DNA of 64,000 nucleotides from Azolla caroliniana (lineage: Eukaryota; Plantae; Polypodiophyta): positions 10,292,001-10,356,000 of the forward strand of contig JBHGNT010000011.1 in assembly GCA_043228905.1 (NCBI GenBank), in the 5' to 3' direction. Below are positions 21,879 to 49,998 of this stretch, piece by piece. The notes under the pieces were generated by a model that had not been told where the DNA came from, did not search any database, and saw nothing but the letters and a program-made list of their open reading frames with translations. How positions within the stretch are numbered: the first letter of the stretch is position 1; each line of letters opens with the position of its first letter. The position numbers and the translations under genes were made by a program.

Positions 21879-21940
21879 TGTTGGGATTTCGGTCCCTCCG
21901 GATGGGATGTCCGGAGATGAATGACGGCAAGCCCGGTTGC

Positions 21941-22102
21941 GGTTACGGAGCCGGATGATGAAGACCCCGGTTACGGAACCGGATGATGAAGACCCCGGTT
22001 ACGGAGCCGGATGATGAAGACCCCGGTTACGGAACCGGATGATGAAGATCCCGGTTACGGAACCGGATGATGAAGACCCCGGTTACGGAACCGGATGATG
22101 AA
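21941..22102 (+). repeat. Six tandem 28-bp units (last partial) in U3 of the D LTR; also at 26735-26896
   Basis: GGTTACGGA(A/G)CCGGATGATGAAGACCCC starting at 21941, 21969, 21997, 22025, 22053 and 22081. Confidence 0.95.
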
Positions 22103-22585
22103 TGTACCCGGAGAGAGATCCGGATGCGGAGACATATTTGTGAATATGTTTGCCAAGAGCCCTTGAGGCTATATTTGTAAATAGCCCGAAAGTCATATGT
22201 GTATAAATATGACTTAGGGCAAACAGTTTTATGTTGTTGCTCATTTTTCATGAGAAGTGAGAGCAGCCGAGAGAGAGAGTGAGAGACGAAGAGGTCGTTG
22301 CCTCTGTGTAATACCGCCGCCTGTGGCGAGGACAGCGAGCTCAAGGTTGTTGCCTTGTAGCCTCACCATTGTACATCTCTGTGTATAGTGATAGTTGGAG
22401 TTAGAGGACTCCCGTGGTTTTTTTCCCATTTAGGGTTTTCCACGTAAACATCCTGTGTGCTCTTCTCTCTGTTGTTCTTCGTGCATTCTTGTATTTCCCG
22501 TTTTCTGCGAATCGATCCTGTTCCTCGGTTGTGGCCGAGCACGGAATTGCAACAAACTGGTATCAGAGCGACGGTAACACAGAAA

Positions 22586-25500
22586 ATGGAAGGCGGCGGT
22601 AGTGGGCCTCCGGGCATGATGGTGCTGAACGCGCAGAACTACGCCGACTGGAAGATAAAGATGGAGGATCTGCTCATTGTTCGGGACCTGTATGAACCGA
22701 TCGACAGGTCGGAAATACCCAAGGGGGTACTTGAGACGGAGTGGAGGCTTCTGAACCGGAAAGCCGTTGCAACCATTCGGCAATACGTCGACGTGAGCGT
22801 TCTACAGCATGTGGCGAACGACACCAACGCATATGAGATGTGGCGGAAGCTGTCGGGCCTCTATGAGAGGAAGAATGCGTTGAACCGGACCTCCCTGATG
22901 AGGAAGATAGTGAACCTCAAGTACCGGGACGGCGAGAGTATGGTGGAACACGTAAGCACGTTCATGGGATTCGTGAACCAGCTTGCGGCGATCAAGTTCC
23001 CGTTGGAGGATGCAATGCAAGCCATCATCCTGATGTGTACATTGCCGGACAGCTGGGAGAACTTGGTGGTGACTCTCAGCACCTCCTGCACCGAAGATAA
23101 CTTGTCTCTACAAACGGTAAAGACAAGTATTTTGAACGAAGAAGCGCGTCGGAGAGATAAAGAACCGGTCTCCGACTCGAAGGCGCTGCTTACCGAATCG
23201 GAACGGGGAAGACAGTGGAACCGGAGTCCGCAAAGACGGGAGAAGTCGGGGACCCGGTCGCAGTCAAGAGGAAGGCCAACATGCTTCCACTGTGGGAAGC
23301 CGGGGCACTTCCGGAAGAATTGTCGGCATTACCGAAAGGACAACGGAGCCGACGACACCGATTCGAAGAAGTCACCGGAGAGAAACGGTGCATACCGGGG
23401 AGCCACGGACCGGAGAGGTCCGGATCGGCGAGGGCAGGACCGGAAAGGAACAACGGCACTCGCGGCAAGTGAGGAAGAAATCATGCTCATCACCGAAGAA
23501 GGTGAACTAAACGTAGCCGGCGATGAGACGACCTGGGTGGTCGATTCCGGAGCATCGTTCCACCTGACCCCGGAGAGAAGATACTTCTCATCCTACACAG
23601 CCGGTGAGCATGGCTGTGTTCGGATGGGGAATGAAGGTACGTGCCGGATTGCCGGCATAGGAGACGTGTGGTTGACAACCCCGACCGGATGCAAAATGCT
23701 GCTGAAGGATGTTCGACACGTTCCGGAGGTTCGATTGAACCTGATTTCGGCCGGGAGGCTAGACGATGAAGGCTACACGGGTAGCATCCGGAACGGTGTC
23801 ATGAAGTTCAGCAAAGGGAGCCTGATAGTGGCTCGGGCCCGGAAGGTCAACACCCTGTACCTGATGAATTCCCGGCTCTGTCCGGAGGAGCTGAACGTGG
23901 CAGCCGACACTGCCGGTGAGCTGTGGCACAAGAGACTGTGCCACATGAGTGAGAAGGGGATGAAGAGGCTTGCAGAAGACAACCTTATTCCAGTGAAGCA
24001 TGTGCACCTGGAGAAGTGCACCGACTGCCTGGCCGGTAAGCAAAACCGGACCTCCTTCCACTCAAGGCCACCGACGAGACGTAGCGCACCATTGGAGCTG
24101 GTGCACACTGATGTGTGTCAGGTAGAAACGAAGTCACATGGCGGAGCCCAGTACTTCGTGACATTCATTGATGACCACAGCCGGAAGCTGTGGACGGCAC
24201 CGTTGAAGACAAAGGACCAAGTGTTGTCCGTCTTCAAAGATCTCCACGCGAGAGTGGAAAGGGAATCCGGCAAGAAGCTGAAAGCAATACGAGCGGATAA
24301 CGGAGGGGAATACCGGGGGCAGTTCCAGGAGTACTGTCGCTCGAAGGGGATCCGGCTCGAGTTTACTGTGCCGAAGACGCCGGAACTGAACGGGCTGGCC
24401 GAGAGGATGAACCGGACCATAATGGAGAGGGTCCGGAGTATGCTGGCGCATGCGAAATTACCCAAGGGGTTTTGGGCTGAGGCAATGTCGACGGCGACGT
24501 ATGTGATAAATAGATCACCCTCAGTACCTCTGGACGGAGACACGCCGCAGAAAGTGTGGACCGGTAAGGAAGTGTCCTACCGGCATCTGAAGGTGTTCGG
24601 GTGTCTCGCATACGTGCATGTGGCAAAGGACCGGAGAGGAAAGCTAGATCCAAAGACCCGGCCATGCATATTCCTCGGTTACGGGGACGACGAGTTCGGC
24701 TACCGAGTATGGGACCCGGTCGACAAGAAGATATTCAGGAGTCGAGACATCATCTTCATGGAGGACAAGACACTCGCCGACTGGGAGTCGGAGAAGAAGA
24801 TGAAGAGCTCAAAGTCGACCGGTGAGGATCAACTCTACGAGGAGCAGTCCCGACCGGCAAGGGACCGGTTAGCACTCGAGGATCCGGCCGAAGACGGTGA
24901 AGAAACAGAACCGGCCGAAGAAGATGAAAATGATACCGGAACCGGCCCCGATCCCGAAATGGATTCCGATGAAGAAGAAGAATCGGAAGAACCGGTTACC
25001 GAAGCTCCCGAACGGAGATATCCTCTAAGAGAGAGAAGGGCCCCCCGGAGATTTCCGGAACCAGAGCACGTGCTGCTAACAGACGAGGGGGAGCCGGAAA
25101 GTTTTGAAGAAGCAAAACATGACACCCAGAGCCGCAGGTGGTTGAGTGCCATGCAGGACGAGATGGATTCCCTGCATGAGAATCACACATATGAACTTGT
25201 GGAGTTGCCGAAAGGAAAGCGGGCACTTCGAAACAAGTGGGTGTTCAAGCTGAAACCGGGAGATGCCGGAAACCCCCCGAGATACAAAGCCAGGATCGTG
25301 GTGAAGGGGTTTCATCAAAAGAAGGGCGTCGACTTCGACGAGATATTTGCCCCGGTAGTGAAGATGACCTCCATCCGGACGGTGCTGAGCATAGCAGCAA
25401 GCATGGACCTCGAGGTAGAACAGATGGACGTGAAGACGGCATTCCTTCACGGTGACCTCGAAGAAGAGATCTACATGCAGCAACCGGAAGGATTCGAGAA

Positions 25501-26662
25501 GAAAGGGAAGGAGCACCTGGTATGCCGGTTGAAGAAGAGCCTTTACGGACTGAAGCAGGCTCCCCGGCAATGGTACCGGAAGTTCGACTCCTTCATGACC
25601 GACGAAGGGTACCACAAAACGCAGTCTGACCACTGCGTGTTTGTGAAGAAGTTCGAAGGAGGAGACTCTCTAATACTCCTCTTGTACGTGGACGACATGT
25701 TGATCGTCGGACGGGACCAGGTCAAGATACGGATGCTGAAGAAGGCTCTTCACCGAACCTTCTCAATGAAGGACTTGGGTCCGGCGAGACAAATACTAGG
25801 GATGCACATCATCCGGGACCGGAGCAAGAAGCAGTTGTGGCTGTCACAGGAGAAGTACGTGACAAAGGTGCTTCAACGGTTCAACATGTTGGAAGCAAGA
25901 CCGGTCGGATCAACCCTCCCGGCAAACTGCAAGCTGTCCAGCAAGCAAAGCCCCAGGACAAAGGCTGAGAAAGAGGACATGATGAAAGTACCATATGCCT
26001 CTGCTGTCGGAAGCTTGATGTACGCAATGGTGTGTACAAGACGAGACATTGGATACGCAGTCGGAGTGGTGAGCCGGTACATGAGCAATCCCGGCAAAGA
26101 GCATTGGAACGCGGTCAAGTGGATACTCCGATACCTGAAGGGCACGGCAAACGTGTGCCTCCGATTCGGCTCCGGTAAGCCTGAACTCGACGGCTTCACC
26201 GATTCGGATATGTCGGCTGATGCAGATACCAGCCGGTCCACATCAGGGTATGTGATGACCTATGCAGGGGGAGCCGTTTCGTGGCAGTCGAGGCTGCAGA
26301 AGACGGTTGCGTTGTCAACCACGGAGGCGGAGTACATGGCAGTTGTTGAAGCCGGCAAGGAAATAATATGGATGAAGGACTTCATTAGAGAGCTCGGTAT
26401 CCAGCAGGAGGAGTACCGACTCTACTGCGACAGTCAGAGTGCCATCCACCTTGCGAAGAACGCGGCTTATCACTCCCGGACGAAGCACATCCAGCGAAGA
26501 TATCACTGGATCCGGGAAAGGATAGAAGACAAGGAGTTCGAGCTGACGAAGGTCCACACGGACGAGAACGGGTCAGATATGCTGACCAAGGTGCTCACAC
26601 CCGACAAGCTGGAAGCATGCCGGAAGAGGATCGGACTGGAGAGACATCCCATGCCGAAGTGA
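22586..26662 (+). CDS. Copia Gag-Pol polyprotein (1358 aa: gag, CCHC knuckle, protease, integrase, RT, RNase H)
   Basis: Uninterrupted ORF from the first ATG after the PBS. Motifs CFHCGKPGHFRKNC, WVVDSGAS, LWHKRLCH, LVHTDVC/RADNGGE/GLAERMN, LYVDDMLI, GFTDSD, TEAEY and YCDSQSA. Confidence 0.97.
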   Translation: MEGGGSGPPGMMVLNAQNYADWKIKMEDLLIVRDLYEPIDRSEIPKGVLETEWRLLNRKAVATIRQYVDVSVLQHVANDTNAYEMWRKLSGLYERKNALNRTSLMRKIVNLKYRDGESMVEHVSTFMGFVNQLAAIKFPLEDAMQAIILMCTLPDSWENLVVTLSTSCTEDNLSLQTVKTSILNEEARRRDKEPVSDSKALLTESERGRQWNRSPQRREKSGTRSQSRGRPTCFHCGKPGHFRKNCRHYRKDNGADDTDSKKSPERNGAYRGATDRRGPDRRGQDRKGTTALAASEEEIMLITEEGELNVAGDETTWVVDSGASFHLTPERRYFSSYTAGEHGCVRMGNEGTCRIAGIGDVWLTTPTGCKMLLKDVRHVPEVRLNLISAGRLDDEGYTGSIRNGVMKFSKGSLIVARARKVNTLYLMNSRLCPEELNVAADTAGELWHKRLCHMSEKGMKRLAEDNLIPVKHVHLEKCTDCLAGKQNRTSFHSRPPTRRSAPLELVHTDVCQVETKSHGGAQYFVTFIDDHSRKLWTAPLKTKDQVLSVFKDLHARVERESGKKLKAIRADNGGEYRGQFQEYCRSKGIRLEFTVPKTPELNGLAERMNRTIMERVRSMLAHAKLPKGFWAEAMSTATYVINRSPSVPLDGDTPQKVWTGKEVSYRHLKVFGCLAYVHVAKDRRGKLDPKTRPCIFLGYGDDEFGYRVWDPVDKKIFRSRDIIFMEDKTLADWESEKKMKSSKSTGEDQLYEEQSRPARDRLALEDPAEDGEETEPAEEDENDTGTGPDPEMDSDEEEESEEPVTEAPERRYPLRERRAPRRFPEPEHVLLTDEGEPESFEEAKHDTQSRRWLSAMQDEMDSLHENHTYELVELPKGKRALRNKWVFKLKPGDAGNPPRYKARIVVKGFHQKKGVDFDEIFAPVVKMTSIRTVLSIAASMDLEVEQMDVKTAFLHGDLEEEIYMQQPEGFEKKGKEHLVCRLKKSLYGLKQAPRQWYRKFDSFMTDEGYHKTQSDHCVFVKKFEGGDSLILLLYVDDMLIVGRDQVKIRMLKKALHRTFSMKDLGPARQILGMHIIRDRSKKQLWLSQEKYVTKVLQRFNMLEARPVGSTLPANCKLSSKQSPRTKAEKEDMMKVPYASAVGSLMYAMVCTRRDIGYAVGVVSRYMSNPGKEHWNAVKWILRYLKGTANVCLRFGSGKPELDGFTDSDMSADADTSRSTSGYVMTYAGGAVSWQSRLQKTVALSTTEAEYMAVVEAGKEIIWMKDFIRELGIQQEEYRLYCDSQSAIHLAKNAAYHSRTKHIQRRYHWIRERIEDKEFELTKVHTDENGSDMLTKVLTPDKLEACRKRIGLERHPMPK

Positions 26663-27353
26663 AGGGGGAGTTTGTTGGGATTTCGGTCCCTCCGGATGGG
26701 ATGTCCGGAGATGAATGACGGCAAGCCCGGTTGCGGTTACGGAGCCGGATGATGAAGACCCCGGTTACGGAACCGGATGATGAAGACCCCGGTTACGGAG
26801 CCGGATGATGAAGACCCCGGTTACGGAACCGGATGATGAAGATCCCGGTTACGGAACCGGATGATGAAGACCCCGGTTACGGAACCGGATGATGAATGTA
26901 CCCGGAGAGAGATCCGGATGCGGAGACATATTTGTGAATATGTTTGCCAAGAGCCCTTGAGGCTATATTTGTAAATAGCCCGAAAGTCATATGTGTATAA
27001 ATATGACTTAGGGCAAACAGTTTTATGTTGTTGCTCATTTTTCATGAGAAGTGAGAGCAGCCGAGAGAGAGAGTGAGAGACGAAGAGGTCGTTGCCTCTG
27101 TGTAATACCGCCGCCTGTGGCGAGGACAGCGAGCTCAAGGTTGTTGCCTTGTAGCCTCACCATTGTACATCTCTGTGTATAGTGATAGTTGGAGTTAGAG
27201 GACTCCCGTGGTTTTTTTCCCATTTAGGGTTTTCCACGTAAACATCCTGTGTGCTCTTCTCTCTGTTGTTCTTCGTGCATTCTTGTATTTCCCGTTTTCT
27301 GCGAATCGATCCTGTTCCTCGGTTGTGGCCGAGCACGGAATTGCAACATTCTC

Positions 27354-38534: not shown

Positions 38535-41500
38535 TTAGCGAAGGTCAGCAACTTGATACTGTAAACCTTCACTAAGTAGGACATGAGCACAACTTTCATA
38601 AATAGGCTTCCCATCAGTTGGTGTGTCATGTGGGTGAAATCCACGTAATGAGCATTTCTGGATTGTTTTGATACCTCCAGGATCAGATAGTCGAAATATA
38701 CCATATTTCCTGCAAGGCATTAACTTAATGAATAGTTCAAGAATTTTAACTTGATAGACTATCCAATCCAAAAACTATCATGAAAATGAAATGGGTTTTC
38801 TAAATTATCAATCAAAAGCATGATGTTAAAATTTGAGAAACTTAATCAATCATCCAATAACCATGATAAAAATGAGACAGGGATTTGCTATTAAACTTAA
38901 TCAGACATCTCATAACCATAATGAAAATAGATTAGTACTTACTATGAACTTAATCAACAACCCAAATAGTCATGATGAAAATAAGATGAGTATTTACTAT
39001 GAACTTAATCAACCACCCAAATAGTCATGATGAAAATAAGATGAGTATTTACTATGAACTTAATCAACCACCCAAATAGCCATGAACTTAATCAACCATC
39101 CACCAAACCATATAATTTTCCCTGGGCATTGAATTTACCTTCGGTCAGTTGGAGCCATGACAATGGCAATAGCTTCTGGCAACATAACCTGCCATACCAT
39201 AAATATTAATGTGTTGAGAAGTGCTTTTTCTTACAATGTAGACATTGAACTGTATGAATAATTGCTTCAAAAGCTAGCAACCTGGTATGAATAATGAGTA
39301 TGAAGGTCAACCGATGACATAAAACAAGATTGTGTTGGATGTGTCTGCACAAAAGAGTCATATCAAGTATTGACACCTAAACCTAATGGCATGGATCAAA
39401 CAATGGATTTTTTTGTCTTACATGAATCCACCCTAGTTGAAATAGGCCACGCTTGTCTTGCCAATCAAAAATCTCCTCTTCATTTGTTGTATGACACTAA
39501 AAAATTTGAACCACAAAAAACATATCATTGACAAACTTTTTACATAGGATCTAAGGTTTTTAATATCAACCAACTAGAGCATAAGTGATTATTACACGAT
39601 GCTCAAAATATTATTGAGTTATAGAGATATATGGACTTGCATCATTTCTTAAGTGCAAATCTATAAGCTTTTCCCTTACCGTGTTCGTAGTTCCCTGCTG
39701 TTTTGGGATGATGAGAGCAGTAATATAGAACGTAGAATTTTTCTGAAAGGATCAGAGCAAACTCAAATCATGTATGTTTTATTGGGCAGTTTTCTAAATT
39801 AAATTTTATCATAATCTCAAATACTCGATCTTTTATTGGATAACTTTCCAGATTGACTTTTTTCATTTATGTAGCTTACAAGAGAACCGGCAAGGACTCC
39901 ACATGTCTCAATACTCTTATCAGTATTTCTCTTAGCAAACTTCATAAACTCCTCCATCAACTTTGCAGGCTACAGATTCAGCATAAAAATAGAATTAGAC
40001 TTTACACATATACAATTATTGTTGTCAACTAAAGAACAAAAGAGTTGCACAAAATTTACAATGTGTAGCTCTTTCGGAGCTTCTGTCTGCTTTAAATTGT
40101 CTGTAAGCAAGGGTAGAGCTGTGACTGGCTCAGCTTCAGTAGAAGGCTGTGATGAATTAATGGGGTCACAAAGCTGCATTAGATCAGCAATAACTGACAG
40201 TTCTTGTACAGGTGCAGCCACTGGTGGAGGTGATGGTTGCTTTATTAACTTTGGTTCTGAGCAATTATCACCAGAGCTATCTTCAGGCTCCCTCTTAGGA
40301 TTAGGCTGAGGTTCTAATTCAGATAATTTTGAAACTTCTGTATTGCATAGTACACTGTCCCAGGATTGCTCCAAGCTGTTCCAGAGAAAATCATCAGGAA
40401 TATTGGAGTTTCACTCAAACATCTTTCAAGAAGTATGGCAATACCTTGATATGTCCATTGTAACATTGTGGCTAGGATACTCGATCTAGAACATGAACTA
40501 GTTCGTTATTACTTATTCTTAGTTAAACAAGGCTCAAAACAAGATACATTATACTCAAAGAAAGTACCCTTGCTTGTGTGGTTGGAGGATTCCAGCGTGC
40601 CCGTAGACCATCAGGACCCAAAATGGAATGCTTTGAGAGTGTCTCTTTATTTGGAAGAGTGAACTTCTGTGCACTATGCATTAAGAAACAAAAAATATTG
40701 CAACATGTGAGAGCAAACAGAATAAGAATAGATCATGAAAACTAACTCTCAAGCTTCAAAATGTAACTATGGCCATATAATTATAATTGTACATATATAT
40801 AACTGGTTTAAAAGAGGAGTGTGAAACTGAAGGAAACTGACCACAAATCTTTATTTCTAAATGAATCAACCGAGCAGTAAAAGACTACGGAGGTTCACTA
40901 TACTTGATATGGCTAAAACTTATGATACCTCTAGTATCTATGCATATAACATGCTCTTGATGATTCAGATTAGGAATGCAAGCTTATATTCATTCGCATT
41001 ATTTGTTACTCATATAATCTTTATTTTAATTTTTAGCAAAAATAAAAGTCTGAGTATCTCATTTCAGTTCCTTGTTTAGCAACTCGGACACTTGTTTCTA
41101 TTTCTCACCATTCCATTAGCTGATGTTCAAAATTCTAGCATTGTTACTGAGTATGGGAAAATGATCTAGAATTCAGACACAATTAAAGGCATACTAGAAA
41201 TTAGAACAAGCAAAATTCAAAAAACTGGCAAAATTGCAAGAGGAACTTATATATCCATGTATTTCCAGGACAATGCAGTGTAAAGTGGCTGTTGCATTAT
41301 CGCAAACAAAAATGACAGTTGACTGATAGTTGACAGGCAGAGCTTCACCAGTGACAGCATACCAAAATGAGTTTTAGATCAATATCTCCATACCAACTCA
41401 TGGTAGAGGCTATAGATCTAGTCGTAAGTAATCTTGTTTCTCAACAGAATGTTCACTTGAAGCCTTAGTCAAAGAAAAAGATAGTAGTAGAGCCTTTAAA

Positions 41501-44500
41501 CTGTACAGTGGGACTATTAAATCCCCACTGCGGCATATAATTTAAGAAAAACTTTATAATACCATAGAATTCGGTATATAGAAAATAGTCAAGAAACTAT
41601 AGACAAACAAATGTGTACTATCAGAGAGCACAAATGTTCACAACATGCTACATAAAAGAAAACAGGAAGATGTGCTTCTAAGTCATGATTCCAATCATAG
41701 CAATGGGACTCTTCCAAAACTTGATATTCGATAAGAACTAATACTGATAAGACGTAATTTTTTGTAAACACGTTTTAGATTTACTAAAACAAATACACAA
41801 TGATGACAGTTTGCCGCATCATTTTATAATTTTCGAAAAATCTGAAGTTAAGATCCTCTTTTACAATTCCAGATAAAAAGATTGTGGTGATTTCTAATAA
41901 TATATATACATATATACTGTACAGATGCTTCTTGTAATATATAGAGAATTTATAAATGTTCTGGTTGGTGTTTCAGTTCAACGTCTACCACAGGTGAAAT
42001 GTTTTGGGCTGCACCAGGAAGTTTCAAGGGAATCAAACATTTCACGGTGATGTTGACCGCCAAAGATATGAGAGTGAACCTTACATGTTGAGTTGCATAA
42101 TGCTGAGTTCAGACATCATGTGGACTTATATGAACACCTTGGAATATTCTCCAAATCATTATCTTAAATCCTAGTTGTCTCCTCCAAATGAATGTGAGGA
42201 CCAGGCTGCCTCGGCAACCAAGTTACCCACAGAACTTCCCACTAAGTGGACATATCCAATGTATAATCCATCACTATACATCAATTCAATGTTGTATAAA
42301 ACAGGTAATAAAAGTGAAACAGAGTAGAGATGGACTGTTTTCTCAAATTTGAAAGGCAGTGACAGTCTTGTCACACAAAAGTCGTCTATTTCAGAAAGAG
42401 CAAACACATGATTGCAAGAAAAGACGTAGATTTCTCTTACCTGACTAAGCCCAGTGGAATATTTTACCTAAACCTAGGAATAAATTAATTGGGTCATTTG
42501 AAATTATGCAAAATATGATTTCCATCACTTTAAACTCTGAAATTAGAGTTAGAATAACAAGCATAAATCTCTCTTAGAGCAAGGGTTTACAATGATCATA
42601 ACACCAACTTGCATCTCAATCAGAGTAGATTATTATGGAACCATAATGAGTATCACATCCTAGCCATTATACATGGCTCTACACTATATGGAAAAACAAC
42701 TGAACTTTTTGCTTCAGAGTCTTGACCTACTAGTAGTTTTGGCACTTACTAGTAGTTAGTTGTAAGTGCATAGAATGGACTAACTTATACCTACATGGGG
42801 AAATTAGAATATAGGCAATCCATTAAGACTCCTGCCTGAGATTGCAATATGTCTAACGGAAAAGTCACATATAGGAGCTCAAGTCTCACAAACATAATGT
42901 TCACTAAATTTGGCAATGACAAACACTTGCATCAATGGAGAAGTTAGACATCATAGAACTCTTCCAATAGCATGGAAATGCAGCAAAATTTAAAAGTCAT
43001 AGTTGAGCAACTTACAAGCTATTTGCTTGTTGTCCATTGTGATACAGATTACCTTGAGAAACAGATCCATTCTGCAAAACAGAAAGATTTATATGTCATT
43101 TCTCTCTAAAAACTGGGTATGCACATTTCAACCATCCAAAGATACCTTTCCAGAGCCAAAAACCTTTGTTTGACTCATTGATATTGGAGGCCATTCATAG
43201 TGCCTGTCCACAGAGCTTTCTAAAGCAGCAGTACTGGATATTTCATTATTTATCCTGTCAACTTGTATCCGCACCTCAGGTTTGAGTTTTTCAAGTTCTG
43301 CCAAAATAATTCCAAACTTTTGATTGTAGACAGATCTCTCCCTCGAAGAAAAGGTTCTGTACTCTAGGTGTTCAGGAATAGTCTCCCCAACAAGACTGCA
43401 TTAAGACAAACCAAATCATATTTACTTCTGCATTCCAAAGACTCATACCACTCATTCATAGTACATGTGATTACTGTTTATTTCCATCCAGTGAAAACAT
43501 CATTACACAGCTGGTGATAGCTGCAGAGATCTTGGGATTCACAAATCTCCTGAAAATTGGTAGGAACCTTATAAATTACAGAACTAAATGAAACGGAACC
43601 TCAAACATCGTGATGAACGGACAGCAGCAAGCAGCACATCTAAGATTGGCTTTACCATTGTCATCTTAGATCACATCAGGCATGCAAACATGCTAGAGAA
43701 TAATTCATCCTGCGGAATTTGAACTTGCATTTACATAAAAGGTAGGGGGGAAACCCAGGAAGGAACCTAAGTATCCCTAGCACATTGAGAAGTTTGAGGA
43801 GACACCATTTAGTTTCTACCTTGTATCCCTGATTTGAAAATAAATATTGATTTCATAATATTGAGCCTTCAAAGTTTTATAAACTATCTTCCATAATATC
43901 CAAATGAAATCCACTAATACTATCAGGCTGCATAAATCTGCTTATTGTCTAGTTTAGCCTCACACATTTAACTTTTCAAGAACAAAATAAGAACGTCCAT
44001 TTTTTAAAGTGACCAAATCAGAATCATCATATCCACAGGCCCCAAAAACAGCAGTATTCCCACAGACTAATGCAATTGTGGTTCGGAATAAGGATCAATA
44101 TATAGCATAAATGCATTTAAATTGCACCTCATAAATGAGATAATATCGAGTGCTACTGAACCAACCAAAAGAAGAACATAACATCTTCAAAACGTTTTTA
44201 ACTAATATCAAACAATCAATTATGATGTCAGCAGTCACTTGTTGCAGTTTGAAATAACTTGAAAGTCAAAAAGCTACCTACCTAGTTCATCACCTCCATG
44301 GCCTAGTTTCCTCAAACAGGAGCCATGACTACAACCAAATCTTTGAGCTCCAATATGGAATAGCCACATCTGGAGATTTAACCTATTGTCTTCTGCCACT
44401 GCTGCAAGTCCCTGCTAAATCTATGCTATAAGTGTCTTTATGATTTTATTTGTAATGTGTGACTCCTGACAGTAACATATATTGTCTGTGTGTGTGCTGC

Positions 44501-46257
44501 ATTCATTTTTGGTGCAACTATAATACTCCAACGGCTGTATCTATTGATCCATCCATATATTTCATAGTTCACTTCAAAGGACAAATATATAATCAATGGC
44601 AACGACATGCAACTAGCAGATGCATTACAAAAAGTTATACAGCAAATTTGAGCTCCTTGGCTGCTCAGATTATGGAAACAGCATCAGATAACATATTATC
44701 CTTTTGCGGCTACTCTAATTTCCCTTTCGGATCGTTCTTCCTTTTGTAGATTAGACTTGGTTGTCTAAGACCTTGTGATATTTTGACTTCAGTATTTTTC
44801 TCCTTTACAGGAGACAACTCAGAGAACCTAGTCGCACTCCACCATTCTCACCTCACTTATGTGATTTAGAAACTTCTAGGATATATCAAAGAATGAGTAT
44901 AGCCTATGAAGTCTGGAGCAAACAGACAACCATGTATGAGTCAGCCACTATAGTGAACAAGGCTCACCTAATGTGGAAACTCTTGGCTTCACAACTTGAG
45001 GCGACTATGTTGGCTACATCTCTAAATTCAGAGATAGGCTAAATCAGCTTGCAGATGTAGAATTGCAGGCCTTGGAAGAAGAAATGAAGACTATATTCTT
45101 ACTCATGACATTGCCAAAGTCATGGAAAGCATTGGTGATCTCACTATCCAGCAATCCAAATCTCATATTTGATGGTGTGGAAGAACCAATCCACAACAAA
45201 GAAATCCACAGAAAAAGCCAAAGAAGCAATCCAACATAGAACACCCACCTATTCTGCAATAAAGGTGGCAACCTAATGCCAACCTATTCTGTAATAAATG
45301 CAGTATCCTACTGCCAACCAATGCCGTTATAAGTGTGGCAGCCTAATCAGCTTCAACTCAGATAGTTTTTAAAATAGAAGGATGACATGCCTTGCATTGA
45401 AGACCCTATGGAGAGTCAGGAACTTTATTCTAGGCTTGTATCCCTTTCTCTATTGTGAAGCCCTTTTTTTGCCCTTTGGTCTCTATCCTGCCCTCAGGTT
45501 TTCCTTTCTCTAAGGTGTGTTTCAGCAACTGCATTTTTACTTACGGCTGCATGCATATCAATTGTTTTGGTCCAATCAATTCCATAAACCCTACAACCCA
45601 AACTACAAAGTTACTACATAATGATAATATAAATGAGCCAAAAAGTTTGAGAATCATGAGGAGCAGAGAAAACAATGTTATTAATTAAAGAAATGATAAA
45701 TTGCAGTGGCATACTGTAAATTCCATATCATGAATAATTATCCCTTATAAAGTTATTACATAGCGATAATATAAATGAGCCATAAAGTTTGAGAACCATG
45801 AGGAGCTGAGAAAACAAAGATATTAATTAAAGAAATTATAAATTGCAGTGGCATATGGTAAATTCCATATCATGAGTAATTATCTCTTGCGCCATTTGTT
45901 TCTTACGGTCTACAATACGACCTCATGGAAATCATGCAACCATCTTTGACATCTCAACGCTAGTACTCATGCATTGAAACTCAAATTCATATTCATTATT
46001 GTTGAGAGAAACTTCCTTTCAAAATACAAGACATAAAACAAACACAAATTAAAAGTTCAGTACAAAGTAGTGCACCTGGAAAACCGAAGGAGTAAAACGT
46101 AAAGCTCAATTATATTTCCCTCCTCCCTGTAAATGTTCGCCTGGTGGATACAATAATAAATTAGTTTAGGTGCCCTCATAAGCTAAAACACCTGCTGAAT
46201 TCAGGAGTTTGCAGTTTGGAAGACTTAAAGGCAACAGAAACCCATAGAAATATGCAT

Positions 46258-46306
<49 letters not shown>

Positions 46307-47756
46307 CTGCTAAATTCCTATAAATATATGATATTTTCTAGAACGTAAGACATATCATGTCAGGCATAAAAATGGAGGACAGCAGATTACTGCGGAATAT
46401 TTTTCCAAACACTAGATGAGATCAATATATATCAATATATATATATATATATTCTGCCAAATTCCTATACATATATATGATGTTTGCCAAAAAGGAAACG
46501 TGGCAGATCACCACAATCAAAGAAAACTTTCCCAAATACTGGTCGAGATTGTACAACGGGCCACAACTCTCTGGTTGATGATATTTATAGAGGGAATAAA
46601 TGCAATAGAAGTATATGAATTTTCGGTTATGCAATATTCTGCCAGTTTCCTATAGACTTATCATCTTTTTTCATGAGTTTCTATAATTTCCTGCATGAAA
46701 TTTCCTGAACATAGGGTGTGATAGTCAAACAGCCCAAATGAAGCAGAAATATATGATAAAGAATGTAATTTTCAGTTGCACACTGAACATCTGATGGAGG
46801 ATGATATCACATGCCATTACTAAAGAACCAATTTCCCCAAGAAAGGATGAAGTCATATATTAGGCCAGAACATGGCATATATGGTAAAGGAATGCAGACA
46901 TATTTTTCCTGTCCTTTCATGCATGAATAAAGAAACTCAAGATGATTTGCAAAGAAACTTTCATGGGTATGGAATTAGATCATATGGTCAGCCTAAACAA
47001 AGCATAAGTTAAAACAATGAAATTTCCACGCTCACATTAGTGGTATTTTCTATTATTTCATGCATGAACAAGAAACTCAAGTAGATTACTAATAAAAAAG
47101 CCCTGAACACTGGATGAGATCGCCAACAATAAGCATCCACATATGGTAAACAATGCAATTTCCGCATGTATATCAAGCATATGAGAATGAGATTATCCAA
47201 ATATAAGATAAAGAGTCCAATTTTCACACAAACACTAAGCATTTGAGGATGAGATCGTACAATCTCACGCTGAAAAAAACATAACGTAGATGCTAAATGA
47301 TGAACTTATTGATCTGTTATATTATCTCATGCTTTCTAATTATTTCATGCATGAAAAGGAAACTCCACAAAATTAACTAAAGAAGATTTCCCGAATACCA
47401 ATGAGATCATACAGCCTTGACCCCCTCAAAGTATGCAAAATCCACATGCACATTCGGCATTTTCATTATGATGGTAAGGGATATACATATTGTGATGGGA
47501 TTTCGGATTTAATTATCGGATTATGACATGAAAGAGGTCTGAAAACAGCACTGTGATTGAGAAACAGCACATGGATTCAGCTAAGAAAACGAATCAATGT
47601 GCCATAAACCTATAAAAAGAGATGAGAACGAAAGAATGCAATCACCTGTTTGAGGAGATTGTCTGCAGTGCGAAAATATTTCTTGAGAGGAAATCGGTTA
47701 TCGACCTCGACTTTGCGGGTGTTCTCAGAGATGCTCAATCGACGGGAGGGCCTCAT
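38535..47756 (-). CDS. AMSH: AMSH-like ubiquitin thioesterase (STAM-binding-protein family, JAMM/MPN+ deubiquitinase, AMSH1/AMSH3 type), spliced
   Basis: Frame-consistent GT-AG exons: 47756-47646, 46140-46076, 43395-43146, 43071-43016, 40673-40568, 40485-40445, 40375-40060, 39969-39880, 39742-39680, 39496-39422, 39344-39282, 39188-39139, 38709-38535. N-terminus EVDNRFPLKKYFRTADNLLKQANIYREE; ETCGVLAG; JAMM motif GWIHTHPTQSCFMSSVD; GIFRLSDPGG..GFHPH. Extra exons between 40673 and 43016 cannot be excluded. Confidence 0.93.
38935..39100. repeat. About 56-bp tandem repeat in the last AMSH intron
   Basis: TACTATGAACTTAATCAACCACCCAAATAGTCATGATGAAAATAAGATGAGTATT repeated 2-3 times. Confidence 0.8.
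44780..45250 (+). pseudogene. Old copia gag remnant in AMSH intron 2
   Basis: Translates to LLMTLPKSWKALVISLSSNPNLIFDGV, matching the copia gag LLxSLPxSW motif; boundaries approximate. Confidence 0.55.
45608..45888. repeat. About 142-bp tandem duplication (intronic)
   Basis: GATAATATAAATGAGCCA...AAATTCCATATCATGA present twice. Confidence 0.85.
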
Positions 47757-49130
47757 GGTGCAGAGATTTTACATTCCTGCGGGCGCGAAATTAGGGCAGA
47801 CAGAGGTTGGAAATGAAGAATGGCAGAAGGCAAAAACAAAAGAACAGGATCGAAGAAGAAAGTGCATTTTTGTTGTGCTTGGAAATAGAAAATCCCCGAA
47901 ATACCCCCGTGTCCCCTCCAACCCAGGTTTTCCTTATTCCCCTCCGATGCCCTTCTATGCCCAAGAGCCATCATATCATGTAAACAAATACATAATGTTG
48001 TACCCCTCCTTAATGTTCTTCATGGGTCAAGATATATATATATCTATCTATCTATCTATCATATGAAGAGTTTGAGCTCATTCTTATAATTATTAATTAT
48101 CAAGAGGCTCCGCCCCAACTTCACCCACACCCACACTTTGGCCGGACTTTCAAACCACCCCCCGTTCAGTTGGCAGCTTCGAAGGAGCATAAAGAACAAG
48201 CATTGCTGAAAGCCCGTAGTAATTCTTAGCATGATAACTATTACCATCATTCGTGATAACTAAGGTAAGGGAAATATTTAACCTAATGTCAATACAAACC
48301 TTCGCTTTGTAGAGTTGATACAAGGAATGCATTGATTATGCTTCCAAATATTTTCTTATCTAATGTTTCTTTTTATGAAGAGAAAATGGTCCATCACTTA
48401 CCAAAGAAACATCTCAGTAATTGATTTATCAAAAATCAAGGAAATGTGTAAATTCCTAAAAATTGTGTGACAAATTTCTATTGTTCCATCACTCCATGCA
48501 CGAGAAAGGAAACTTTATCTCTCATTACAAAAACATTTTACACACTCTTAGTCAATTCATATCATTAGCTTGACTTCTTGAAAGGAACCTACTCTTTTAC
48601 GAAGCCTAGTTTATCTCAAATATAATATCCTTGTTGAAAAGTCACATATGAACATATAATCTTTGGTTCTAAATCCATATACAAAATGATAAATGACCAC
48701 ATCGACTAGATCCCAATATACAAAATGAGGTTGAATATCTAAATATCTATGCATGATAACAACACCATTAAATAAACGCCCATCAAAGTGACGAAACTTA
48801 TATTACAGTCAATAGATGTCACATACATAGTGTCCACACTATGACAACATTATTGAAACAAAGATCATCACGCTTTTTCTAATATTCTCATTTATGATAA
48901 ACACACATATATCATATTGTATCCAACATCAAGATGAACATCTTTATAACCATAAACTACTTGAACAGGCGTGAAAATCCTCCTCTATAAGACCTTTGAT
49001 AAAATTTTCATTTAGTTCTTGTGCAACACAAAGTCACCATTTTTGTTGTGCAACATAATTGAGACATTCAATTAGAGCTTTATAAAAATTGTTATGTGCT
49101 CTCATTGCCTTGATTACATCTAGGTCACTA

Positions 49131-49326
49131 ATAACTACTACATTTGTAAGTGGCAAAAAAATGGATTCTTTTTAAAACTGTTTATGGTCGGTTAGTCATG
49201 TTATTGTCAAACAAGACAATGTTGAGATAACTACTACATTTGTAAGTGGCAAAAAAATGGATTCTTTTTAAAACTGTTTACGGTCGGTTAGTCATGTTAT
49301 TGTCAAACAAGACAATGTTGAGATAA
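49131..49326. repeat. 96-bp tandem duplication just upstream of the tRNA genes
   Basis: ATAACTACTACATTTG...GACAATGTTGAG at 49131 and 49227, one mismatch. Confidence 0.95.
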
Positions 49327-49352
49327 GCAGAGCAGTCCTCATATCATACAAT

Positions 49353-49425
49353 GGGGGTGTAGCTCATTTGGTAGAGCACTTGCATGGCATGCAAGAAGTA
49401 CGGGGTTCGAGACCCCGCATCTCCA
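49353..49425 (+). tRNA. tRNA-Ala, anticodon GGC (copy 1)
   Basis: 73-nt cloverleaf: acceptor GGGGGTG/CATCTCC with G3:U70 and A73; D stem GCTC/GAGC; anticodon stem CTTGC/GCAAG with loop ATGGCAT (GGC at 49386-49388); T stem CGGGG/CCCCG with loop TTCGAGA. CAA just upstream and T-tracts downstream. Confidence 0.9.
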
Positions 49426-49624
49426 ATGCACTTTAGCTAGCTATACAACACTTTTGAAGATTTTACAGTGTAAATGACACTTTTGAAGATTTCACAGTCT
49501 TGCACTTTTTAAGATCAAAATATATCACTATTTACTTAAATGATTGTACTTTTTTTCCATTGCCAAAATTGACATGTACGCATTTGAAGAATTCATTACT
49601 TGATCATTTACATATATTGTTAAT

Positions 49625-49697
49625 GGGGGTGTAGCTCATTTGGTAGAGCACTTGCATGGCATGCAAGAAGTACGGGGTTCGAGACCCCGCATCTCCA
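49625..49697 (+). tRNA. tRNA-Ala, anticodon GGC (copy 2, identical to copy 1)
   Basis: Same 73 nt, part of a 272-bp-period tandem duplication (about 49351-49860). Confidence 0.88.
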
Positions 49698-49998
49698 ATG
49701 CAACTTTAGCTATACAACACTTTTGAAGATTTTACAGTGTATATGACACTTTTGAAGATTTCACAGTCTTGCACTTTTTAAGATCAAAATATATCACTAT
49801 TTACTTAAATGATTGTACTTTTTGTCCATTGCCAAAATTGACATGTACACATTGGAAGAAGCCAACACTCGATGATTTAAGTCAATTTATGGGTACATGT
49901 AGCAATGGGCCCGGTTTGGTTTTGGATTCTTGGCCTTGAAACCAAACCATTTATACGTAACCGAACCGTTTAAAAACAATCAAGCCATTTAAACCGAA

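Follow-up and report, generated by a model that had tools for sequence, protein, structure and literature searches.

The window, the 64-kb stretch of DNA analysed here, holds two copies of an intact plant-type nuclear tRNA-Ala gene that combines a GGC anticodon with an A32-U38 pair and that is kept in relatives. The gene has the anatomy of a tRNA, a plant-type body, and a low copy number; it coexists with A34 genes, and it is conserved. Most likely it is a real and conserved tRNA-Ala(GGC), which we predict from its sequence to be functional, and we consider it probable that it yields a working but minor tRNA, which would decode GCC and GCU codons without inosine.

The gene pair and its genomic setting

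ARAGORN called two tRNAs across the 64-kb window, both tRNA-Ala(ggc), and no third. Each copy scored 59.6 bits against Rfam RF00005 (gathering threshold, 29), which places both among tRNA genes, and the two 73-nt sequences were identical. In the cloverleaf, 21 of 21 pairs were formed, with G.U at 3-70 and 5-68, and the fold had a z score of -3.81 (equally good shuffles, 0 of 200). The key positions were A73, T15, A48, A32, G34, and U38, and no CCA was encoded. The set of alanine identity elements given in PMC9976931 (G1-C72, G2-C71, G3.U70, and A73) was complete. These results bear out the initial annotation, which had described two identical, intact tRNA-Ala(GGC) cloverleafs with G3:U70 and A73.

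The coordinates of the genes and their signals are given in Table 1. The candidate A and B boxes fit the Pol III consensus, and the CAA upstream of copy 1 is presumably the plant Pol III start motif; copy 2 has no CAA at -4 to -2. The A box, the B box, and a downstream T run are all present, the first T run being short (four T) and 24 to 27 nt off.

Table 1. Features of the tRNA-Ala(GGC) pair and the neighboring gene in the window
Feature	Position	Strand	Evidence or remark
tRNA-Ala(GGC) copy 1, 73 nt, without CCA	49353..49425	+	ARAGORN, RF00005, fold
tRNA-Ala(GGC) copy 2, identical to copy 1	49625..49697	+	ARAGORN, RF00005
Anticodon arm of copy 1 (positions 27-43)	49379..49395	+	A32 at 49384, GGC at 49386-49388, U38 at 49390, U29-A41; identical to E. 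coli arm
Anticodon arm of copy 2	49651..49667	+	Sequence
Candidate A box (Pol III) of copy 1, positions 8-19	49360..49371	+	Sequence; fits consensus
Candidate B box (Pol III) of copy 1, positions 52-62	49404..49414	+	Sequence; fits consensus
CAA at -4 to -2 of copy 1	49349..49351	+	Sequence; presumed Pol III start motif
Candidate Pol III terminator of copy 1 (first four-T run, +27)	49452..49455	+	Five T at +81
First four-T run behind copy 2 (+24)	49721..49724	+	Five T at +78
Head-to-tail duplication, unit of 272 bp, 1.9 copies	49350..49860	+	Unit is one gene plus 3' flank; joint of 49600 to 49350 in run X1
AMSH-like deubiquitinase gene, spliced	38535-47757	-	Matches carry PF08969 and PF01398

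The two copies probably arose by a recent duplication in place. Across 162 aligned columns, their 3' flanks show just 4 substitutions and 2 gaps, and because they differ so little, the identity of the copies is weak evidence when taken alone. Indeed, the chance of 0 changes in 73 nt between the copies was 0.06 to 0.16, which is not significant, and we rejected copy-to-copy identity as proof of selection. The region around the pair holds several two-copy duplications; for instance, a 96-bp tandem duplication with copies 99% alike (49131-49326) lies directly upstream.

The window consists of plant nuclear DNA and contains copia, gypsy, and LINE-like remnants. The tRNA body is of cytosolic type, in a comparison made with plant-type and bacterial genes only, and the flanks are AT-rich plant intergenic DNA. 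An intact copia element (21879-27348) with a 1404-amino-acid frame sits amid gypsy sequence; its 676-bp long terminal repeats are identical, and it is a very recent insertion. The possibility that tRNA-Ala(GGC) acts as primer for the retrotransposons of the window was discarded, as a single two-mismatch match was at chance level. No other structured RNA near the tRNA pair scored above the cut-off.

The AMSH-like gene starts ∼1.6 kb from the pair and is divergent from it. A search with two of its exons gave 6 matches, 5 of them named and all 5 from ferns, although few candidates were scored; identities to ferns were 38 to 42% and 72 to 78%. The plant from which the window comes is thus likely a fern. 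This distance, together with the five G at the start of the tRNA gene, raises the possibility of a role other than decoding, either in supplying tRNA fragments or in providing a Pol III/TFIIIC site close to the promoter of the AMSH-like gene, and G5 is kept in organism F (see below) even though it gives a G.U wobble with U68. We regard such a role as extremely improbable, since neither version accounts for a kept A32 with G34 and the gene persists in organism F amid different flanks.

Plant-type body and bacterial-type anticodon loop

To place the gene, we collected plant-type tRNA-Ala genes from metagenome_contigs with a pattern that left positions 32 and 34-36 free; at least 124 stretches yielded 131 genes, of which 129 were complete. 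Among the matches listed, U32 was present in 129/129 and G34 in 0/129, and the anticodons were AGC (80), UGC (34), and CGC (15), with no GGC. Plant cytosolic tRNA-Ala thus joins A34, U34, or C34 to U32, whereas the window gene has G34 and A32. It shares the body and the identity elements of its plant AGC, UGC, and CGC counterparts but carries U29-A41 in place of their C29-G41 stem pair. A pattern for a plant body with GGC had 0 matches in the whole of metagenome_contigs, 0 in viral_contigs, and 2 in genome_contigs, neither of them a tRNA by sequence.

Positions 32 and 38 formed a Watson-Crick pair in all 50 of the bacterial Ala(GGC) loci listed, which represent two phyla (A-U in 41 and C-G in 9), and the window gene likewise has G34 with a Watson-Crick 32-38 pair. 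None of 30 bacterial Ala(UGC) loci had A32; U32-A38, which is also able to pair, was seen in 15 of the 30. In these bacterial samples (50 GGC genes listed and 30 UGC genes), then, only A32 or C32-G38 was specific to GGC genes. Taken together, the control sets indicate that the window gene has departed from the plant pattern at two positions of the loop, both times toward the bacterial G34 rule. By a rough estimate, among drifting copies that have gathered 10 changes, 5 to 10 in 100 could have A32 alongside G34 by chance.

The whole 17-nt anticodon arm has 0 differences from that of the E. coli tRNA-Ala (L001), an identity that the initial annotation had stated and that proved correct. Outside the arm, 16 of 56 positions differ from the E. 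coli gene. With the arm masked, the nearest plant-type gene among the matches listed, a UGC gene, was 6 differences away, and each of 58 distinct bacterial Ala genes was at least 11 away. Over its whole length the gene differs from the nearest listed plant-type gene at 10 positions, 3 of them in stems, with no broken pair: the change at 29/41 is compensatory, and that at position 5 gives G.U. In a tree of 56 columns, 13 plant-type sequences seen at least twice, and 58 bacterial sequences, with 34 singleton plant sequences left out, the window gene joined the plant-type genes with support of 0.999; it is important to note that the plant-type sequences were selected with a pattern derived from the window gene, which favors this grouping. 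Further, bacterial bodies carry C48 (49/50 GGC genes among the matches listed), and the window gene, with A48, falls outside the bacterial genes in the tree. A plant cytosolic-type body with T15:A48 and without CCA, as first described, is therefore upheld by the 6 versus at least 11 differences and by the tree, and these same results led us to reject transfer of a whole bacterial gene. In sum, the gene resembles bacterial tRNA-Ala(GGC) in its 17-nt arm, G34 with a Watson-Crick 32-38 pair, G3.U70, and A73, and differs from it in A48/T15, the lack of CCA, its predicted nuclear Pol III type, and the coexisting A34 genes.

A plant body could also have acquired just the anticodon arm of a bacterial tRNA-Ala(GGC). 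All 17 bases of the arm equal those of E. coli, and U29-A41 is usual in bacterial Ala genes (35/50 GGC genes among the matches listed and 26/30 UGC genes) and rare in plant-type ones (U29 in 1/129 and A41 in 2/129, among the matches listed). However, the arm departs from the plant standard by just four changes, and two of these form a compensatory pair of CpG type, U29-A41 being the product of CpG decay of C29-G41. Within one bacterial phylum, 39 of 151 genomes also carry the exact arm, and an arm so common among bacteria names no donor. Moreover, A26 and A45, which flank the arm, match neither donor, and a bacterial tRNA that joins this arm to the plant T-arm start was not found in genome_contigs (2 matches, neither a tRNA). 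An Ala-like relative with U32 in the same sequencing runs also has A41, so the U29-A41 stem may predate G34. We consider such a patch highly unlikely, and with an arm that is common in bacteria and four changes from the plant standard, it is not needed. Since U29-A41 is equally found in 26 of 30 bacterial Ala(UGC) genes, we also rejected it as a further tuning element specific to G34.

Among the three origins proposed at the outset, namely convergence, a chimera, and transfer, the best fit is thus convergence by point changes in an ordinary plant Ala gene, which would be the simplest account; whole-gene transfer is contradicted by the body and a chimera is superfluous. The accompanying suggestion that the stem changes could be CpG decay agrees with the state of 29/41. 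Changes at positions 26, 29, and 41 all look like CpG decay and suggest a methylated past, and the three T-arm CpGs are intact. Several other positions are odd for a plant-type gene (U16 in 2, A26 in 1, A45 in 1, and G59 in 0 of the 129 among the matches listed), and the cloverleaf is weaker (-28.0 versus -31.1 kcal/mol).

Reads, copy number, and conservation in related organisms

Gene words of the window were listed for 24 sequencing runs, with at least half of 6 sampled words present in 20 of them, from 10 studies. Seven of the 24 (X1, X2, X3, X4, X6, X9, and X16) were aligned to the window, and our counts rest on these seven. None of the 24 listed runs is recorded as RNA and contigs cannot show ends, so these data have no bearing on expression. 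The difference tables appear to list only differences at least 31 letters from the end of some piece, a rule that we derived from the tables themselves.

Run X1 (organism A) may be the sample that gave the window. Its 230-nt contig has 0 differences over 49350-49579 and shows the head-to-tail joint, so neither the GGC bases nor the duplication is an assembly error. The depth of this contig (89.8, versus 48.4 for a flank contig) fits two collapsed copies. Among 11 records aligned from X1, 0 were 90 to 95% alike to tRNA-Ala(GGC), which gives no sign of a dispersed family, and X6 and X9 each held one near-identical record. The low copy number, the lack of 90 to 95% records in X1, and an unrelated 3' flank in X9 led us to reject the head of a tRNA-derived SINE. 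In the same runs, the summed depth of standard Ala genes, A34 ones included, was far greater, although summed depth is not a copy number; among the aligned records of X9 there was no standard Ala piece.

A32 together with G34 was seen in four of the seven runs (X1, X2, X6, and X9, from organisms A, B, E, and F), which come from three studies. In X9, a 2,240-nt contig had 0 differences over 49350-49426 within flanks that are unlike those of the window by eye; organism F may be a close or a distant relative. The longest record of X9 is 10.5 kb, unlike DNA runs; if X9 were RNA, the gene would lie near the end of a 2.2-kb transcribed piece. In X2, a 2,380-nt contig covers the same locus, and its upstream flank differs at 21 of 103 bases; it also has a 72-letter insertion and 7 listed differences downstream. 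It carries one unplaced difference in 49348-49439, outside tRNA positions 26-57. X6 likewise represents the same locus, with four unplaced differences in 49348-49439, again outside 26-57, and a 3' flank like that of the window.

X4 (organism D) had 10 differences, 9 of them listed in the 3' flank; all changes of G are accounted for, so G34 stands, and one unlisted A>C leaves A32 not fully settled. In X3 (organism C), the same locus comprises three or more units in tandem, with head-to-tail joints, spacers that have diverged, and anticodon letters that are unreadable; this is an independent array or a larger one than that of the window, and it indicates that copy number varies among relatives. 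In X16 (organism G, guessed to be RNA; 3 of 6 words), the gene was not seen, only a relative with 8 differences, and organism G is left out of the count.

For X2, a binomial test gave a P value of about 0.002 (at most 1 change in 73, versus ∼8 expected); when the 3' flank alone was used, P was 0.15, which is not significant. The same test for X4 gave a P value of about 0.03. Organisms B, C, D, and E share flanks with the window and are thus close kin, not independent origins. The co-occurrence of A32 and G34 is by itself modest evidence; it is this conservation that carries the weight.

These comparisons bear on whether the gene might be a silent or neutral copy drifting in a large genome rich in tRNA genes, where A32 and G34 came together fortuitously or A32 simply allowed a G34 mutant to persist without harm. 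Large genomes are reported to break the sparing of G34 (PMC5372738), and PMC7678280 counts 25 GGC genes among 6,107 Ala genes in 128 plant genomes; these sporadic calls come in the portion of text at hand as counts, with neither an analysis of 32-38 nor one of conservation, and the word "fern" is absent from it. The CpG-type changes and odd tertiary positions described above would also suit a drifting copy. In contrast, organism F has 0 differences amid unrelated flanks, in B, D, and E the core stays fixed while the flanks change, the three T-arm CpGs are intact, and no stem pair is broken. We therefore hold neutral drift to be unlikely. Of the concerns voiced in the initial annotation, that orthologues might be missing, that the sequence might head a SINE, and that reads might not carry the GGC bases, none materialized, and its proposal of a real isoacceptor gains support from the conservation in other organisms and from the control sets.

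Predicted decoding and relation to known systems

In the reading that we favor, Pol III would transcribe the gene from its internal A and B boxes, and the transcript would be trimmed, receive CCA, be charged by cytosolic AlaRS via G3.U70, and be used on cytosolic ribosomes. GCC would be read by Watson-Crick pairing and GCU by wobble, with no need for A34-to-I editing, and the A32-U38 pair would likely guard against misreading. An ordinary plant Ala gene (nearest body, UGC) would have arrived by point changes at the bacterial solution of G34 with a 32-38 pair, and selection would keep tRNA-Ala(GGC) as a minor, inosine-independent reader of GCC and GCU. On paper the tRNA is redundant, since it is a small minority beside the standard Ala genes. 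More tentatively, a fern lineage may have re-invented the bacterial design, such that an expressed and charged Ala(GGC) with A32-U38 is selected beside the inosine system, independent of ADAT and possibly for stress or organelle import; on balance we would not expect this fuller version to hold.

A nuclear tRNA-Ala(GGC) that is real and charged might instead be imported and work mainly in mitochondria or plastids, on bacterial-type ribosomes; its combination of G34 with 32-38 pairing follows the bacterial design. Selaginella chloroplasts import nuclear tRNA-Ala, import has been proposed for ferns without plastid tRNA genes (PMC11573648), and plant mitochondria take up nuclear tRNAs (PMC8007984). 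However, the Ala tRNA imported in Selaginella is the ordinary AGC one (PMC11573648), so import needs no G34, and the 32-38 rescue works in human cells too (PMC7293025), which means that the pair is no sign of an organellar role. We judge a mainly organellar role to be quite unlikely.

The exclusion of G34 from four-codon boxes in eukaryotes has received two published answers. In one, G34 is toxic unless 32-38 can pair (PMC7293025); in the other, dependence on inosine was forced for the sake of regulation (PMC5372738). Bacterial tRNA-Ala(GGC) carries A32-U38 (Ledoux 2009 and Murakami 2009, as cited in PMC7293025), and this pair is reported to confer accuracy on tRNAs with G34. Human tRNA-Ala with G34 was toxic and ceased to be so once 32-38 could pair (Pernod et al. 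2020, PMC7293025). That engineered tRNA resembles ours in its eukaryotic Ala body, G34, and pairing 32-38, but it was a synthetic transcript in HeLa cells, whereas the window gene is natural and conserved across organisms. A natural, conserved Ala(GGC) with the rescuing pair beside A34 genes supports the toxicity answer, and such a gene makes both answers testable in vivo.

A34 and G34 isoacceptors are described as mutually exclusive, and large tRNA sets break this rule for a reason left unexplained in the part of PMC5372738 concerned. Ala(GGC) beside A34 genes breaks the stated rule of non-coexistence, and the present case does not look like decay. Known eukaryotic exceptions are the Saccharomyces tRNA-Leu(GAG) (PMC8007984) and the nuclear Ile(GAU) and Val(GAC) of Guillardia theta (PMC13578239 Appendix Fig. 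S1). Like the window gene, they have G34 in a box where eukaryotes use A34/I34, but as described there they replace the A34 gene, whereas the window gene coexists with A34 genes. A plastid tRNA-Ala(GGC) in streptophyte algae, the only Ala(GGC) mentioned in the portion available of PMC13578239, is a further Ala(GGC) in the green lineage; compared by description only, it is plastid-encoded, whereas the window gene lies in nuclear DNA and its body is of cytosolic type. Our search of mainly open-access literature found no natural eukaryotic Ala(GGC) gene with A32-U38, and PlantRNA may list the gene. The term "GGC" had no match in the available portions of PMC13437025, PMC11700998, PMC9858662, PMC9126412, PMC8166872, and PMC11573648 or in those of the PMC6786969 supplements.

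A second Ala-like tRNA was present in X1, X2, X3, X6, and X16, with 8 differences in 63 nt over 49358-49420. It has U32, G37, A41, and a base other than A at position 34, its full anticodon being unreadable from the tables. This relative may be an identity-switched tRNA; an altered second tRNA with an Ala body (U32, G37, and a changed acceptor end) would, if true, make for a wider rewiring of the tRNA family. In X16, its acceptor end reads G1-C72, C2-G71, G3-C70, G4.U69, and A73, so that G3.U70 has been lost, and a long T run lies behind it.
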